DNA of 64,000 nt from Cirrosporium novae-zelandiae (Eukaryota), in assembly GCA_026023565.1 (NCBI GenBank), contig JAPETS010000037.1, positions 186,001 through 250,000 of the forward strand. The letters run 5' to 3'. Shown in pieces: positions 16,191-55,364 of the stretch. Position 1 is the stretch's first letter. Each line of letters starts with the position of its first letter. Made by a program: the position numbers and the translations under genes. The notes beneath the pieces were generated by a model. That model had not been told where the DNA came from. It saw only the letters and a program-made list of their open reading frames with translations, and made no database searches.

Positions 16191-19100
16191 CTATTTGCCC
16201 TCAAACAGCTTCGTCAGGGCAGGTTCGAGTTTCTCTAACTCCGCAATCTCCCCAAGCTTGACCCTCATATAATCAAATGCAACGCCAACTTTCAGATCAA
16301 GGTCCATTTCTTGGTCATCCTGGGCTTCCTTCATTATCATGTCTGTAGATCGGGGCGAGGTGGTTGATGAGTACCCAGCAACCTCATGTTGTTGTCGTCT
16401 AGGAGACCTTGTAGAGTTTCTCGACGAAGTATTGCTTCGTCTAGAAGGCCTTTGACTTCCCCGAAGGATTGTACCTTCTTGTGGGGGAGATGTACTTCGC
16501 CTACCAGAATTCATAGATCCCCGTCTGGCTGTCTTCGCATTTAGCACCGAAATACTTGTATTGCCATCTGACTCCATGCTGTAGGCTTGACCTGCCACAT
16601 TCATCCTACCACGTTCTACAACTCCATCCTTTTCTTCTCCCCATACTTCAGTTTCTTCCCCTTCCTCTTCTGCTAGCCTCTTCGACTTTATCTTCACCTT
16701 GTTTAGAACAGGAAGCTTCTGATATCGTTGAGAAAAATGGGTCAATATGGCACGGCGATTTTTCATTGCACAAGCAACGGTCAAGGCTTCCGATGTTGTC
16801 GAATGTTTTTTAGCCATGGCGTCGACCTGAAGTTCATCGTCAAAGGTTGCCTCATGAATTAAGAGATGGCAATTCTGACTCAGATGATGCCGTGCCCATT
16901 GCATGCATGGCCGGCAATCACCAGAGTATCCAACTTTGAGACCGCTTGGGAAAGCAATGGTGAGAGCCAAGGCGCCTTTACAATGGTCCACAGGCGTAGC
17001 GTGGAGATCAGATAGCCCAACGGCTGATGCAACTGAAGATACCGGAACAGCATGGCCATGCCAGGTCAAGGTTCCGGATGGGGCAACTGCTGCTATCGGC
17101 ATGACTCTCGAATAACCAAAGTCTTCAACGGAAGCATATTCAGCAAGCCAAGAGATCATGCCTTCATCAGAAATCACAGCGAGACGCTTGTTTTCGCTAT
17201 TTGAAGATATCTCTGAAAGAACTGACTCTGGAGAGAAAGAAGAAGGGTCGGTCACATCAGGTCCTGGGGTAGAATACCCCCCATGAACGGTTTGGTACCA
17301 AGCCTTGATAACTGAGGTAGTACCAAGGTGATGGTCTGCATGCAAATGACTGATCCAAATCATTTTGAGATCATGTAAAATCTCTGTGAGCTGTTCTGGA
17401 GTAAACACCCGGCGAAGCTGGCCAAGTGTGTTCTCTCCACAATCAAATAAGTAGGATCCAAACCCAGGGACACGAAGTAGGGTCGCAGAGACATTCCGAT
17501 ATTTCGATGGCAAAGCGGATCCAGTACCAAGGGTGACAATCTCCGCATCTTGACTCGGAATATCGGCTTGGACTTTTTTGAGGTGAGCTTTGAATTCAGG
17601 GTCTGAAACTTGTTCCTGGGCTTTTCTTGCGAGAGCTAAGACTTCGGATGGAGTCTTTCTGACAACCTCGGCCGTGTTTAGGAAAGGAACGGTTTCAGCG
17701 TTACTGGATCCGGTATCTGGCTCGAGATGAAACATCTCTCCTCTTTTTGCTGGTGAGAATAACAAGTCGTCTCCAAGAGATTCATCCGGGACTCCATAAC
17801 CACTCTGAGGCAAGGTTGTATTGTCATGTACTGGCACAAAAAACCTCTGTTTGTCAATTTGATGTAATTGAATAGCGCTGGATGCTGCACTAGTAAATGC
17901 TAGATAGTTAGGACAATGATCTCGGGATGACACAATGTGCTTGACCTTGTCCATTCCTTCACAGAACTGCCTCAAGCGTTCGTCCCGGCTGACTCCAGGT
18001 CCTAGTATCCAGATTATTGCTGCAATTCCCTTCATAATTTCCAAATCTTTCCATTCTGGTCGTGATATAAGGTTTTCAACATATTCCATGCTCGGAAGAT
18101 CAATCACTGCAATCCCACAGCCGGGCCGATCTTCTCCTATGACCATTTCAGGGGTGATTGTCTTTCCATCTGTTGATTGAACCGATTCTCCACGTGTTAG
18201 CATCCCTCTGTCCTTGGGTCTGATTTTTAGCTCCTCCGCCTTTTTTGCATCGAACTTCCCGCGGCGAGTATATGTCTTTATGATGTAGGATACAGATTCT
18301 TTTGAAGGCTTTGTTGGTGGCAGACCTGCAACAATTGCTCCTGGCCAAGGCTGACGAGCGAGAACAGTAATATTTGGCACTGGATCCCCAGGGCCCGGCA
18401 ATTTCAATCTTTTTAGTTTGTTTGTCATAGGGTCCAAGAGATAAGCATTTGCACCGTCGTGTATATCCTTTAAGGGAGTTTCAACCAGTTTATCCATTCT
18501 CCATTCAGAGTTGAACATCTCATGCACAATAGCATTCCGAAATTTCTGGTCTCTGTCAGGGTCATCTGCGCTAACTTCCTTGTCAAACTCATCCCAGGAT
18601 CTCTTTCTGAGAGAAGACGGACAAGGGAAATGATGAGGTTGTTCACTCTGCGATGTCGAAGGAGAGATGGGCATGGCCCATATTTTCACATTTCCATCTG
18701 TCCAGTTTGGCTCTCTGGGTCCCTTGAGGTCCTTATCTATGCTTCCAAGGAGCTCGTGAACTTTCACAGGCATCCCTTTCCTAAAGATAAACCTCCTCGC
18801 AGTAGCCAGACTATGCGTCAAATTCATTGCGCCATGAATAGTTAACGAAGTCCTCGAGGGTGGTGGTTCTTGCTTTGTAGGGATCCCTTTTTTGCCACCA
18901 TTTTGGAATTGTTCCCTTCTTATTCGTTTTTTCTCGGCATTTTCTGCAATAGAGGCTGCGGAACCATTCGTCGCATCTGCAAGGTTCAAAATCATTCCAA
19001 TCAAGCCACCAGTACTACTCCATTCTGTCCGACCCGTCAGGAAGAAATCACTGACTTTCCCAAGCTTTACACCCCGCTGAATGCATGCTCGAGATGTGCC

Positions 19101-19208
19101 CTCCCCGATATTGCCCAGGAGATAGCGCTTATTCTCAAAGTGCAGAAGGATGGTGGTACCAGAAGTGTCGGAGGTGGGAGTAGTGATAAACTGGATGTAG
19201 GATCTCAT
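16191..19208 (-). CDS. TRZ1: tRNA 3' endonuclease RNase Z, long form (ELAC2/Trz1)
   Basis: LGNIGEGTSR, TLGTGSALPSKYRNVS, DCGENT, SHLHADHH, YSGDCRP, HEATF, HSTT and LTHFSQRY motifs. Intronless 1005 aa. Confidence 0.96.
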   Translation of the reverse strand: MRSYIQFITTPTSDTSGTTILLHFENKRYLLGNIGEGTSRACIQRGVKLGKVSDFFLTGRTEWSSTGGLIGMILNLADATNGSAASIAENAEKKRIRREQFQNGGKKGIPTKQEPPPSRTSLTIHGAMNLTHSLATARRFIFRKGMPVKVHELLGSIDKDLKGPREPNWTDGNVKIWAMPISPSTSQSEQPHHFPCPSSLRKRSWDEFDKEVSADDPDRDQKFRNAIVHEMFNSEWRMDKLVETPLKDIHDGANAYLLDPMTNKLKRLKLPGPGDPVPNITVLARQPWPGAIVAGLPPTKPSKESVSYIIKTYTRRGKFDAKKAEELKIRPKDRGMLTRGESVQSTDGKTITPEMVIGEDRPGCGIAVIDLPSMEYVENLISRPEWKDLEIMKGIAAIIWILGPGVSRDERLRQFCEGMDKVKHIVSSRDHCPNYLAFTSAASSAIQLHQIDKQRFFVPVHDNTTLPQSGYGVPDESLGDDLLFSPAKRGEMFHLEPDTGSSNAETVPFLNTAEVVRKTPSEVLALARKAQEQVSDPEFKAHLKKVQADIPSQDAEIVTLGTGSALPSKYRNVSATLLRVPGFGSYLFDCGENTLGQLRRVFTPEQLTEILHDLKMIWISHLHADHHLGTTSVIKAWYQTVHGGYSTPGPDVTDPSSFSPESVLSEISSNSENKRLAVISDEGMISWLAEYASVEDFGYSRVMPIAAVAPSGTLTWHGHAVPVSSVASAVGLSDLHATPVDHCKGALALTIAFPSGLKVGYSGDCRPCMQWARHHLSQNCHLLIHEATFDDELQVDAMAKKHSTTSEALTVACAMKNRRAILTHFSQRYQKLPVLNKVKIKSKRLAEEEGEETEVWGEEKDGVVERGRMNVAGQAYSMESDGNTSISVLNAKTARRGSMNSGRRSTSPPQEGTILRGSQRPSRRSNTSSRNSTRSPRRQQHEVAGYSSTTSPRSTDMIMKEAQDDQEMDLDLKVGVAFDYMRVKLGEIAELEKLEPALTKLFEGK

Positions 19209-20217
19209 TAGGCGCCAGTTTACGCCTCGCGCTCTGAGAGACAGATTGAGTGAGGTTGAGGGTGAACGAAGACGTAGCCTCCGTATGTTCAGTTATAATC
19301 CTTGCGGAAGTGAAGTAATATAAATAATTTTCGGACAATCAAGTTAGTTATTCTCAAATCGAGCATAGAGGCTGCGAAGACGATAAGAATACCCAAGGGA
19401 GTGATGATCAGAAACTAGAAGGTAATGCTCTATTAAAGCTTCAAATTAGTTTGAAATTGACATGAGAACAGTCATCGAGGTAGAGAAGGAGTATGAGTCA
19501 AGATTGAATGAGTGGACTTGGGGAGGGTAATAAAATATAATGATGACTTGACTGCAGAGTGAATGTACGGATCAGAGCTTTGGTTTTTTTTTTTCGTGGG
19601 CGGTCAGAACTTCTACCAATCACACACATGAATATTAATTCCACCGCGGCAGTAACAACTACATAACCTTCTGGTACGGATTGTTGGGCTAAGGGCTCCC
19701 TTCCTGCTTATTGCCCGTCGCTTCCTTATAATTACACTTGGTATATACCCCGCCCAACGGGCGACATAGACTTATTAGAAAAAACAACAACTTCATCCAT
19801 TCTGCTTTCCCATGACCACCATGTTCACCACCTTCAAATGATAATATGTGAAAAATAGTGAATATGACTCTAAAATATCTCATCACAAATCTACCTCATC
19901 TGATTAGTAATAATAAGAGTCACTAACCTTGTACAGATTCCACAAACTCCAGGAGGGAATTACAGAAATAGAGCATGATGAGAACGGAAAGAGGGCGAAA
20001 GTAGGGCGCATCTTTTCATGTTATATTTATTCCATTGCAGGCACCTCTATATTTACATAACACCCAATAGCCGACCCACAAATCTCTACCTAGTCTCCCC
20101 AAACTCCAAGTACAAACGTATAGCCTTATCTGTCAGGCATTCCCACCCAGTTCTCAGCCTGGACAGGCTTGGTAATAACAAATGAAATTCGTGACCACAG
20201 CCATCATATACAAACAC

Positions 20218-22096
20218 CTAGAAATGGGGAATCAAACAATCCAAGCGCAAACAACTTGACTCCATATCTGAACATAAGCGCTCTAACCGATCCATAGCTG
20301 CTGCGCTGATTTCACCATCGTCATAATCATCTCCCACTACCAATTCGATGCGAGAAAAGACCTTCTCCACTCGGATGCTGCCAAATAGCTCTTCAGTATC
20401 GTCGACCTCCTCAACTTTCCCCATCTCGGAAGACGTAGGAGTATTAGGAGAATCGACAAACAGAGCGAAGTGAGGATCAGATTCATCAAGTTCTATTTCA
20501 GGATCTGGCGTCGCAACCGGCTCATTGGATTCTACTGCCTTGGGAAGCGTAGGAGGGGTCTCAACACAGGGTGTTTGATCTTTCTCGTCGTCGGAGAAAC
20601 CTAACACGGAGCTAGATGTCTTCTCAGACAATATTCCACTATCAATGTGATCTACTGCAGGGCCTTCAGGGATGGAAGTGAGAGCATAGACTTGGGCGTC
20701 GTTGACAGGTAGTCCAGAGCCATAGTTGTAATTATTGTCAATACTCAAGGTGTTGAAATCCATGGTTGTTTCCGGAACTAAGGTCATACCGATTTGCATG
20801 TTATGTTGCTGTTGTGTGAGATGGTGTGGATTTGGATCCTTGGGAAGATTCTGCGAAGTCATCTGTTGAGGAGCTTGCATACCAGCTGGGAGGACACCTC
20901 CATTGTTACTCAAGTTGTCTAAGAAACCCGAGAACGCTGATGAGGAAAGAAGCATTCTCGTCAAATCAGACAAACGCTTGTTCTCTTCCATTAGGGCACG
21001 GTTGTGAATCTTGAGATCGTTAGCCTCGTTTGTCCTAGCGGCAATTTCCCCTTCTAGTTGACTGATGTATTCTAAAACCTGTTAGCAGTTTCTACACCAA
21101 AATTAAGAGAGCGAATGTACCTTTTCTTCGTGATCGGAAGGCACGAGCAGAGACCTTGTTTCTCAGTTGACGGCGCTCCTTACTGCTGAGTTTTTTCCCC
21201 TCCTCGCTATTTAGAAGCCTCTCGTCTTCATCCATGTCTTCTTCATCCTTCTTTACACGGACTTGGTGTGGCATAGCATTGGAAGAGGAAGCATTTTCAT
21301 CATAGGAGACCACGCTGCTTTGCCGCATCTGGCTTAGCAAACGGGATATACGTTCTTCAACCATGGGATCATTTGGACTGTAAGCATTTGAACCCGAAGG
21401 ATGACCCCCTTGTGCTTGGGCTTTCTGACGCTGTTGATTGATAATCTGCTGCTGTTTCTGTTGACGAGCTTGAGCTTGGGCCTTGGCTAGAGCTGCTTGT
21501 TGCTGGTGCATTCCAGGCCAAGCACGTTGAAAATTCTGGCTAGGAATTGTGGGAGCTCCAGATGAGTCCTGTCCACCCACAGCACTAGGATCAACACATT
21601 CAGGCTGTGAATTCTGTGAGTACATTGATGGAACTAGATCACGCTCCGGGGAATCTAATTCAAGGTCCATATCAGGGGTGCCATCACCAAGCATGGGGAA
21701 GCTTCCCATAGAGTCAAAGTCGAATGGAGTCGAGTTCATGCCGAAATAGTTATTATCACTCATCATATTGAATTGTTGCATATTTGCCTCGTTAACCGCT
21801 ATCGTATTAGCCAGCCCTCCAGCCGGAAGGCCAGTCTGTTGTGGATGCAAGTCATATCGATGGCTTGGACCGTTGAAGTTTTGGGCATTTCCCAATTGAC
21901 TTGGAACCGTGACAGGTTGAGGTGTTGCGAAAGAGGGAGGCTGAGTTATGGGTGCCTTTCCCTTGGAAGATGGTGATAATGACGGTGATGGATAAACTGG
22001 ATCATAGTTGATGAAAGACTCCATAGGATCGAGGCAGGCGTTGCTAGCACTGTGAGAGGCAGCAGTTGAAACAGGTAGTTGCGAGGATGTGGCCAT
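20218..22096 (-). CDS. bZIP transcription factor (probably LziP/MBZ1-like group)
   Basis: Intron 21072-21120 joins KKLSSKERRQLRNKVSARAFRSRRK to EYISQLEGEIAAR..L...N..LMEENKRLSDLTRMLL (basic region plus zipper). Gln-rich region present. Confidence 0.92.
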
Positions 22097-53554: not shown

Positions 53555-55364
53555 TCAACCCTGTTTCAGCTTTAGCAAGGCCCTCGTCAACGTCTTCTTC
53601 TCTTTCCCGTCGGCTTCCATCACGACAAGTAAATCCCGCATCTGGAGGCCCTCGCCTTTCCGACCATCTTCTCTGAATTCGCCAATTCTGCTTCCGGTTC
53701 CTGGCGGGAGACCACCTGGCCCTGCGTTTCCCTTAGGCGTGCTGGTTCCGCTACCGGATCCCACATTAGTGTTCAATCTTCCCATTCCCACACCTGTTCC
53801 AAATCCACTGCCTGGTGCCTTCTTTGCTTTGTTCAGCCAGTCGTATTTCTTTGATGTGATTCCTCCTAATGCCATTGCTACTGTCGCATTTGTGTGTTCA
53901 TGCTGTTGTGCTTCTGTAGCACGAAGTTCGGCTTGTCGCTTCAACTCTTTCTTTGTTGGCTTTTTGTACTCTAAAGCGTCAGGAGCAATGAGGCCAGGAC
54001 CACCAGGTGTACCAGGTGTACCGGGTGTGGAGATGGAATTTGCACGAGAAGGTGCTCCATCAGCGGGAGCACTTGAGGTACGGCGGTTTCTGCGAGCAAT
54101 TCGAGCTTCCTCAAAATTGCGAGCAGTACTTGTGAGAGAACGGAGGGTAGAAGCGAGGGCATTAGGTAATGAAATAGGATTAGACTGTGCTCTCGGAGTA
54201 GTCGCGGAACGGATATTAGCTTCAGAATGTGTGCCTGTAAAGTCTGTCAGAGAAGAATAGACAAGCACAGTGAGATATCATACGCTTCAGAGTATTGGAT
54301 TTGGGGCTCATGGCACTGTCCCAGCCACCCTTTGCTGTTGAAGCTGTTTGAGCATCCGCACCACCTTCAAGAGCAAGATCTGTCCATTCAGCAGGTACAA
54401 CTCCCTGGGAGCCCGTTTGTCGGCCCTTAGCGAGTGCAGCGGCATCTTCAACTAGACCTCGCACGTGTTCTTCGCATGCAAGAGATAAAAGTGAAATGAT
54501 ATCAACTAGAGGGGAGTTTCGGTCAACGATGGCTTCACCCTTATAGATTGTAATGACGGAGCCATCCGGGGATTCAACATCCGCTGATGGATATTTTCCG
54601 TCATTTAGTTTTGTTGCATGAAAAACTGTGTTAGGACCCGGAGGTTGGGCACCATGTTTATAGGTTATGTCCCTAATCTTCTTGTCAAGAGGACGTCCAT
54701 CAAGAAAAGGATAGTTGAGATGGTATTGGCGTCTTTCGGCAAGCTTCCGTTCCGCTATCCTTTTTTGCTCTTGTGCGATCTCTTCCGGGGATTTGTATGG
54801 TACCGCCGGTTGGTTGTATGGGCCTGCACCGTAGAACGTATTTGCTGGTCCAGGCTGATATATCGAAGCGTATTCTTGGAAGCTACCTCCTGAAGGTATA
54901 CCATTACTTGAACCTTGGGACAGAAAAGAGCCAGCGTTTGTATTAAACGAGTTTGCATTGAAAGAAGTTTGATTATATTGCATATTCGAATTAAGGTATG
55001 GCTGAGTAAGAAGAGCTTCTTCCTCTCGTAAGTCGACACCAGATGAGGCCAGCACATCCGCAAGCTCGGTGGTATCTGTAGCCTTCTCGTTTGGTCTTGA
55101 AGGTGGACCCATACTTCCAGGACCTGATGAAGTGTTCATATTTTGTGGTGGAGCATTGAACCCGTTTACCGTATTTCCATTATTGGGCAGTTGAGGATGA
55201 GAAAAGCTTGGTGAGCTATAGGGGGACTGCATCTGAGGTTTTGGTGAGAGACGCTGTCGTTTGTTAGGTGGGAGAAAGCTTCCAGCTGGCGAACCGGCGC
55301 GTGGCGATGGAGCTGCAGAGGGAGGAGAATATGACCGTGGCGGGTAATGCTGAGCCTGCGCCAT
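53555..55364 (-). CDS. TAF4: TFIID subunit TAF4 (histone fold)
   Basis: DVLASSGVDLREEE, LSLACEEHVRGLVEDA, TNATVAMALGG..KKYDWL, QMRDLLVVMEAD. Intron 54235-54283. First ATG at 55364. Confidence 0.88.

Follow-up and report, generated by a model that had tools for sequence, protein, structure and literature searches.

How might the long-form RNase Z (ELAC2/Trz1-type) of the fungus Cirrosporium novae-zelandiae reach the mitochondrion, when the AUG-started form of the protein begins right at the conserved fold? The question is raised by a stretch of 64,000 nucleotides of contig JAPETS010000037.1 (NCBI GenBank assembly GCA_026023565.1, positions 186,001 to 250,000 of the forward strand), which we call the window and in whose positions all features are given below; all of them lie on the minus strand. 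Here, the RNase Z open reading frame (ORF; 16191..19208, 1005 codons plus stop, beginning MRSYIQF...) is preceded by a leader of 28 in-frame, stop-free and AUG-free codons (LNIRRLRLRSPSTSLNLSLRARGVNWRL; 19209..19292) that runs directly into its ATG at 19208-19206. A preliminary description of this DNA had proposed that initiation at CUG or AUA within this leader yields the mitochondrial isoform. We find that the conserved, putative TTG start seen in the relatives of this gene is a more interesting result than the Cirrosporium leader itself, and that support for a non-AUG presequence is weaker for the Cirrosporium gene than for the RNase Z family.

The RNase Z gene and the extensions of its relatives

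The gene is the long-form RNase Z of Cirrosporium novae-zelandiae. The tRNase Z endonuclease domain PF13691 covers residues 6-68 of its product (Pfam; E = 2.8e-27, 94.6 bits against a cutoff of 27), the C-terminal metallo-beta-lactamase region is matched by PF12706 (Pfam; E = 1.6e-13), and the His motif (HxHxDH) reads ISHLHADHH within a block, ISH[LM]HADH, that is conserved across the alignment. Over its RNase Z part, the NCBI record 'Zinc phosphodiesterase ELAC protein 2 [Cirrosporium novae-zelandiae]' (P0001), which comes from a metagenome-assembled genome, matches the ORF product with 100% identity. A homologue search with the protein returned 381 matches, the named ones being Pezizomycotina ribonuclease Z or ELAC2, and identity to these named homologues is 44-53% across the full length, in keeping with a full-length tRNase ZL orthologue; among the best 120 of the 381 matches there is no second Cirrosporium protein. 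As a separate observation, the C-terminal ~150 residues (16191-16700) form a long Ser/Arg-rich tail (..RRGSMNSGRRSTSPPQEG..SRRSNTSSRNSTRSPRRQQ..) ahead of the conserved terminal block, and this tail may be a nuclear localisation or RS-like region.

The Met at which the ORF begins is invariant in the 24 sequences aligned, and its position could be located in 118 of the best 120 homologues. Fifty of these 118 begin exactly at this Met; the other 68, which include three gene-fusion models, carry 21-595 in-frame residues ahead of it. The Met pattern missed two homologues, a bZIP fusion and one that likewise begins at the Met. In many relatives the extension combines an Arg/Ser/Leu-rich, presequence-like N-terminus with clade-specific conserved blocks. 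At the DNA level, for which loci were drawn from a metagenome scan and 12 of Pezizomycotina type with an N-terminus were compared, every one of the 12 has 44-205 open in-frame codons upstream of the Met, and in the loci compared the extension is encoded without an intron.

The loci differ in how these open stretches might be entered. Five of them (L001, L004, L005, L011 and L012, the last two near-identical) have an in-frame ATG 99-132 codons upstream of the Met, and in six others (L002, L003, L008, L009, L013 and L014) such an ATG is absent. Overall, eight loci are devoid of an in-frame ATG in the upstream stretch, and six of the eight have instead a TTG in good context, with the pattern purine-NN-TTG-GCN, which in all six (the same L002, L003, L008, L009, L013 and L014) heads an Arg/Ser/Leu-rich presequence-like stretch. 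The pattern takes the forms ACG TTG GCG, ACA TTG GCT and GCA TTG GCT, each seen twice, and its TTG aligns with the ATG of the homologues P0021, P0037, P0048 and P0108. An in-frame stop lies only four codons (L008) or eight codons (L014) upstream of the TTG with no AG between, and hence an upstream exon cannot be spliced in ahead of the TTG at these two loci. L010 reads GCA GTG GCT TCA at the corresponding place; its core Met is absent, and an ATG stands 16 codons ahead of the core. Neither pattern applies to two more distant loci, L027, whose 97 open codons include no ATG and no TTG-GC, and L015, with only 8 open codons upstream. Judged from these sequences, filamentous ascomycetes seem to have, at the TTG/GTG site, a conserved non-AUG start from which mitochondrial RNase Z is made.

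The loci of Pezizomycetes type (L009, L013 and L014) have short leaders, with 32-41 residues from the TTG, comparable to the 28 of Cirrosporium. L014, assigned to the Pezizomycetes, is 83% identical to Tricharina praecox, and the NCBI models of Tricharina, Wilcoxina, Sphaerosporella and Pyronema all begin at the conserved RNase Z Met. We infer that a UUG start commonly gives rise to the mitochondrial form in fungal RNase Z genes and goes unnoticed in annotation; the earlier general idea of a mitochondrial isoform of one long RNase Z, arising from an N-terminal extension that gene finders pass over, is well supported across the family.

The 28-codon leader of the Cirrosporium gene

The layout first described for the Cirrosporium leader proved exact on re-reading. 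An in-frame TAA (19293..19295, within a TATAA string at 19297-19293) closes the RNase Z frame upstream; it is followed at once by a CTG (19290..19292, leader codon 1), and the 28 codons opened by this CTG run into the RNase Z ATG. Its composition was likewise rendered correctly, with 7 Arg, no Asp or Glu and no ATG inside, as was the ATA at leader codon 3 (19284..19286), which has A at -3 (and C at +4). The leader (19292-19209) is thus an in-frame, stop-free and AUG-free extension of the type that is expected of the non-AUG extended mitochondrial isoforms (MT-NTE class) of Monteuuis et al. 2019. Its openness is at chance level and its composition is unusual. Among 43,270 stop-free 28-residue stretches from the six frames of the 64-kb window, 1.9% have no Asp/Glu together with at least seven Arg/Lys, the figure being 0.67% with at least seven Arg, and shuffling the 84 nt gives an open frame of leader-like composition in 0.3% of cases. 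Of the 16 ORFs of at least 250 aa, RNase Z is the only one with an in-frame leader of such composition, and the other two frames of the leader DNA contain stops or acidic residues. From 19363 to 19209, i.e., over the 155 nt that precede the Met, every frame is free of ATG where 2.1 are expected, and the G+C content steps at ~19290 from 0.33 just upstream to a coding-like 0.52 in the leader. At the junction the leader reads W-R-L-Met, recalling the relatives, in which position -3 is aromatic in 32 of 67 (Trp in 8) and position -2 is Arg in 14 of 67.

Three near-cognate codons come into question as starts. The CTG of codon 1 has T at -3 and A at +4, a poor context; the ATA of codon 3 has been described above, and an 8-bp hairpin (19284-19266) begins at its third base; a further CTG at codon 17 (19242..19244) has A at -3 and T at +4 and would give a 12-residue extension, (M)SLRARGVNWRL. 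The leader has no significant RNA structure (whole-leader fold z of -1.81, with 10 of 200 shuffles equally good), and no Rfam match was found at 19000-20400 with E up to 1.

We consider a short non-AUG presequence on the Cirrosporium RNase Z to be the likeliest reading of this leader, held with a confidence somewhat short of even, because the family needs and often uses such starts and no AUG route is available at the Cirrosporium gene. Briefly, we would picture the following course. Scanning ribosomes would mostly bypass the leader and initiate at the AUG at 19208 to make the nuclear enzyme. A minority might initiate at an in-frame near-cognate codon, either the AUA at 19286 or the CUG at 19244, which have A at -3, or with less likelihood the CUG at 19292. 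This would add 12-28 Arg-rich, acid-free residues that could act as a mitochondrial presequence. The lineage would formerly have had a longer extension like those of its relatives, and decay upstream of the TAA at 19295 would have left the short leader. Transcription of the leader, near-cognate initiation, import and the decay history are all steps that we infer.

A strong rival account, which we regard as doubtful though quite possible, is that the 84 nt are untranslated, belonging to the untranslated 5' region (5'UTR) or the core promoter, that the Arg-rich reading is the leftover of a decayed extension combined with chance, and that mitochondrial RNase Z is supplied by a different gene or by way of a signal within the AUG form. 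A number of observations weigh against the non-AUG presequence, and several of these speak for an untranslated relic. To begin with, a 28-codon open run is expected by chance in 26-37% of cases, and the open frame is kept in 37% of mononucleotide shuffles of the leader's 84 nt. The helical hydrophobic moment of the leader, a crude measure, is low at 0.34 (11-residue window); 99% of shuffles of the same residues and 85% of the N-termini from 47 relatives score higher, and the leader's alternation of Arg and Leu is strand-like. Codon usage in the leader frame is non-coding-like, with a log-odds of -1.1; 63% of stop-free non-coding stretches score as high or higher, and the score falls within the bottom 4% of coding ones. 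The setting of the candidate starts is poor as well: the CTG at 19292 has U at -3, and none of the near-cognate codons has G at +4 or stands in the TTG-GCN setting of the relatives.

Comparison with the relatives also yields points on this side. At junction position -1, which is Leu in Cirrosporium, 54 of 67 relatives have Lys or Arg and only one has Leu. The last 28 residues before the Met in relatives contain on average 5.1 Lys/Arg and 2.5 Asp/Glu, 10 of 65 being free of Asp/Glu; the homologous segment is thus already basic, and the basic composition of the leader could be inherited from the ancestral extension. Beyond the W-R-x-Met junction no homologue of the Cirrosporium leader is detectable, and the closest non-self database matches of the RNase Z are 48-51% identical, there being no near relative in the databases. 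A comparison with upstream regions of orthologues, which the preliminary description had envisaged as a check, finds the frames open in the relatives, and for the Cirrosporium leader itself a resemblance at the junction. Finally, the RNase Z frame is stopped upstream of the leader at 19295, 19346 and 19447, and the tentative presequence head discussed below sits in another frame, both of which are in line with an untranslated relic.

Where the transcript begins bears on both readings. A search for sequencing runs that contain 17500-20300 brought up a single DNA run, probably the source sample, and no RNA run. An out-of-frame upstream ORF (uORF; 19289..19366) starts at an ATG at 19366 in a weak context (T at -3, C at +4), encodes the 25 codons MLDLRITNLIVRKLFILLHFRKDYN and, as had been pointed out before, stops on a TGA (19291-19289) that overlaps the CTG of the leader. 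If the transcript starts further upstream, this uAUG at 19366 would intercept ribosomes. TATA-like strings and a CT-rich tract occupy 19236..19326, namely TATTTATATTA at 19326-19316, the TATAA at 19297-19293 and the CT-rich stretch at 19272-19236; from what is generally known of fungal promoters these could be core-promoter elements. Together with the G+C step they suggest a transcript start at or just after 19292, which fits the untranslated reading. Such a start would exclude the CTG at 19292 and probably the ATA at 19286, leaving only the CTG at 19244 for a non-AUG presequence. A 5'UTR intron had also been entertained at 19301..19392, and its elements are indeed there: a GTATTC donor, weak and without G at +5, an AACTAAC at 19349-19343 and the first downstream AG at 19302-19301. 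It cannot link an upstream frame to RNase Z: the acceptor lies upstream of the TAA at 19295, and hence it could be a 5'UTR intron only.

What holds us back from the untranslated relic is that it offers no visible route to mitochondrial RNase Z. The Pezizomycotina are reported to possess just one tRNase Z of the long form and none of the short form (PMC2942849), the AUG form begins directly at the conserved fold, the composition of the leader is rare, and non-AUG starts are clearly used in the family. The earlier proposal of a CUG/AUA mitochondrial isoform thus divides: as an idea about the family it gains from the 68 extensions among 118 homologues, the invariant Met, the six TTG loci and yeast Trz1; as a statement about the Cirrosporium leader it loses from the low amphipathicity, the non-coding-like codon usage and the U at -3 of the CTG at 19292.

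Splicing, assembly and possible relics upstream

Further upstream lies an ORF in frame +1 relative to RNase Z (19498..19629), which starts at an ATG at 19629 and has 43 codons, MCVIGRSSDRPRKKKTKALIRTFTLQSSHHYILLPSPSPLIQS, before a TGA. It is basic, with 8 Lys/Arg in the first 21 residues after its Met, and has no Pfam match. Within it, the stretch RTFTLQSSHH (19540..19569), a candidate presequence head with a CTG at 19557-19555 that has A at -3, resembles the heads of the relatives' presequences, FTLAS.. (F/x-T-L-A-S...) and LASLHH.. (L-A-S-L-H-H). Counted over the six-frame translation of the whole window, FTL.S has 2 occurrences and L.S.HH has 3, and RTFTLQSSHH is the only place where they overlap. 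A second short motif, CPKIIY (19320..19337), is read in the RNase Z frame, 43 codons ahead of the Met and flanked by the TAA at 19346-19344 and the TAA at 19295-19293, and matches a C-x-I-I-Y block found 26-29 residues before the Met in the extensions of the closest relatives; the pattern C.{1,2}[IV]IY occurs 2 times in the same six-frame translation. These patterns (CPKIIY, FTL.S and L.S.HH) were defined after the sequences had been seen.

Systematic comparisons returned nothing significant here. The best tblastn hits of the extensions of 67 relatives against the upstream region (E = 0.36-0.51) lie at 19617-19513, a profile hidden Markov model of the closest group gave the upstream region no match above reversed-sequence decoys, no site upstream of the gene came higher than 149th with an ungapped position-specific scoring matrix built on the C-x-I-I-Y block, and local alignment of the three upstream frames with 27 extensions gave z values of 1.28, -0.28 and -0.61. 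We tentatively regard CPKIIY and RTFTLQSSHH as putative relics of an older and longer extension on the strength of these rare short motifs. Should they be genuine, at least one change of frame and several stops now interrupt the former extension, and just 28 codons are still joined to the Met.

The same upstream ORF underlies another alternative, in which an unusual splice or a recoding event joins the ATG 19629 ORF (MCVIGRSSDRPRKKKTKALIRTFTLQ...) to the RNase Z frame; we hold this to be improbable. In its favour, the ORF is basic and includes the conserved head motif, itself tentative, the acceptor tgtctctcag/A is the best in the leader and is the one picked by the public gene model, and in-frame joins exist on paper. 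For example, a donor at 19552 (GTCAAG) and the acceptor CAG at 19236-19234 would remove a 319-nt intron to give ...RTFTLQ/ARGVNWRL-Met. Our survey covered 128 in-frame joins between any of the upstream ATG ORFs and the leader's four AGs; the best 25 by donor score were viewed, along with all joins from the ATG at 19629 and the CTG at 19557, GC donors included. Those viewed need introns of 274-1054 nt, 274 nt being the shortest, with poor donors that have no G at +5; there is no CTRAY branch point near any of the four possible acceptors, and the relatives encode their extension without an intron. As for recoding, there is no slippery site for a frameshift at the stop of the uORF, and the -1 frameshift from the uORF, earlier listed among the alternatives, was rejected since the sequence has no slippery heptamer. 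Reading the TAA as sense, or reading through it, was also rejected, three TAAs being involved; we know of no genetic code change in Cirrosporium's group.

Could an assembly error, whether an indel or a substitution, hide a normal AUG-started extension? The record is a metagenome-assembled genome and has a run of eleven A at ~19594-19584, which might raise the suspicion, and we nevertheless consider it very improbable indeed. An independently built contig (mean word depth 355) shows 0 differences and 0 gaps over 19000-20300, though it comes from the same sample and is thus not independent DNA, and three in-frame TAAs plus the frame change would all need to be errors. The 1-nt assembly error once offered to explain the interrupted frame is accordingly disfavoured, the second assembly of the sample showing no indel. 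As to the A run itself (19584-19594), it lies inside the ATG 19629 ORF, where it encodes KKK, and an indel there would shift the frame of that ORF; the second assembly agrees with the window at this run.

Upstream of RNase Z the window holds a bZIP transcription-factor gene (20218..22096), with an intron near 21120-21070 and ending in TAG at 20220-20218; it is 68% identical to the bZIP part of P0053. The public record P0001, which carries PF00170, is in fact a 1600-aa fusion of this bZIP gene and RNase Z via a 1054-nt 'intron' ending at the CAG at 19236-19234, and reads ...MDR/ARGVNWRL-MRSY as coding. The annotated product is thus not the ATG form that the preliminary description had supposed. 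A 1752-aa model of Penicillium salamii and one of 1399 aa from Aureobasidium vineae (the two being P0049 and P0053) have the same bZIP plus RNase Z content. These fused models suggest a conserved head-to-tail synteny and a recurrent annotation artefact.

Two further places in the window may be mentioned. Between the bZIP stop and RNase Z, a small ORF from an ATG at 20011 (MRPTFALFPFSSCSISVIPSWSLWNLYK; 19870-20011) is followed by a consensus-like splice donor, AAG/GTTAGT, at 19927, with an ACTAAT and several AGs just downstream; either an intron of the 3'UTR or a small gene that has escaped annotation may lie here. Elsewhere, a 380-aa ORF at 55364 has 60 open in-frame codons before its first ATG, the last 40 of which encode 6 Lys/Arg and no Asp/Glu (..TKTKTKHKIKPTTSS..), and may thus have another unannotated N-terminal extension or a missed exon.

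Precedents and meaning

Four known systems bracket the proposed non-AUG presequence. The first is Trz1 of S. cerevisiae, for which Monteuuis et al. 2019 (PMC6582344) and Skowronek et al. 2014 (PMC3866640) describe that only a non-AUG, N-terminally extended form reaches the mitochondria and that cells with the AUG form alone are petite. Trz1 belongs to the same family and, like the probably single Cirrosporium gene, is one gene with an AUG form that has no presequence and with an in-frame AUG-free leader as the proposed source of the mitochondrial form. The yeast case is shown by fractionation and respiration tests, whereas Cirrosporium is known from sequence alone; neither the start codon nor the leader sequence is related between the two, and the Cirrosporium leader has low helical amphipathicity. 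Human ELAC2 is likewise one gene giving two isoforms by alternative initiation, with the presequence between the two starts, as set out in Rossmanith 2011 (PMC3084753); there both starts are AUG, whereas Cirrosporium has no upstream in-frame AUG. In S. pombe the same need for long tRNase Z in nucleus and mitochondria is met by gene duplication, trz1 and trz2 (Zhao et al. 2010, PMC2942849), whereas no second copy appears among the best 120 homologue matches of the Cirrosporium protein. Finally, fungal aminoacyl-tRNA synthetases, going by Wallace et al. 2020 (PMC7049704), exchange a weak AUG and a near-cognate codon at the head of the presequence (DualAUG versus DualNCC), in the manner of the TTG, GTG and ATG of the RNase Z relatives, but are another enzyme family.

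In the literature searched, which did not extend to supplements, we found no mention of a conserved UUG start of fungal RNase Z. The main text of PMC7049704 does not mention RNase Z, tRNase, TRZ1 or ELAC, that of PMC5487733 on non-AUG starts in Neurospora has no 'mitochondrial', RNase Z, tRNase or NTE, and in PMC11974929 ELAC2 appears in the reference list only, the supplements of all three being places where RNase Z could be listed; in the main text of PMC2942849 the word 'initiation' does not occur.

Taking gene and family together, a wider scenario would be that filamentous ascomycetes often start mitochondrial RNase Z at a conserved UUG, sometimes GUG or CUG, in strong context, which annotation systematically passes over, and that Cirrosporium replaced a decayed presequence with a new and much shorter non-AUG leader, drawn from the final 28 codons of its former extension; in this full form we place it on the unlikely side. 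If a non-AUG presequence holds for the Cirrosporium gene, the mechanism proven in yeast would reach as far as a distant lineage of ascomycetes, with the picture of dual targeting unchanged, and a replaced leader would amount to presequence turnover on an essential dual-targeted enzyme. Gene finders respond to an open AUG-less frame by fusing neighbours, of which the 1600-aa bZIP-RNase Z model is an example. For the family the consequences are broader. Mitochondrial tRNAs need RNase Z, yet the public models of four Pezizomycetes start at the conserved Met without a presequence; should fungal RNase Z as a rule carry a non-AUG presequence, the predicted mitochondrial proteomes of many fungi would be missing an essential enzyme.

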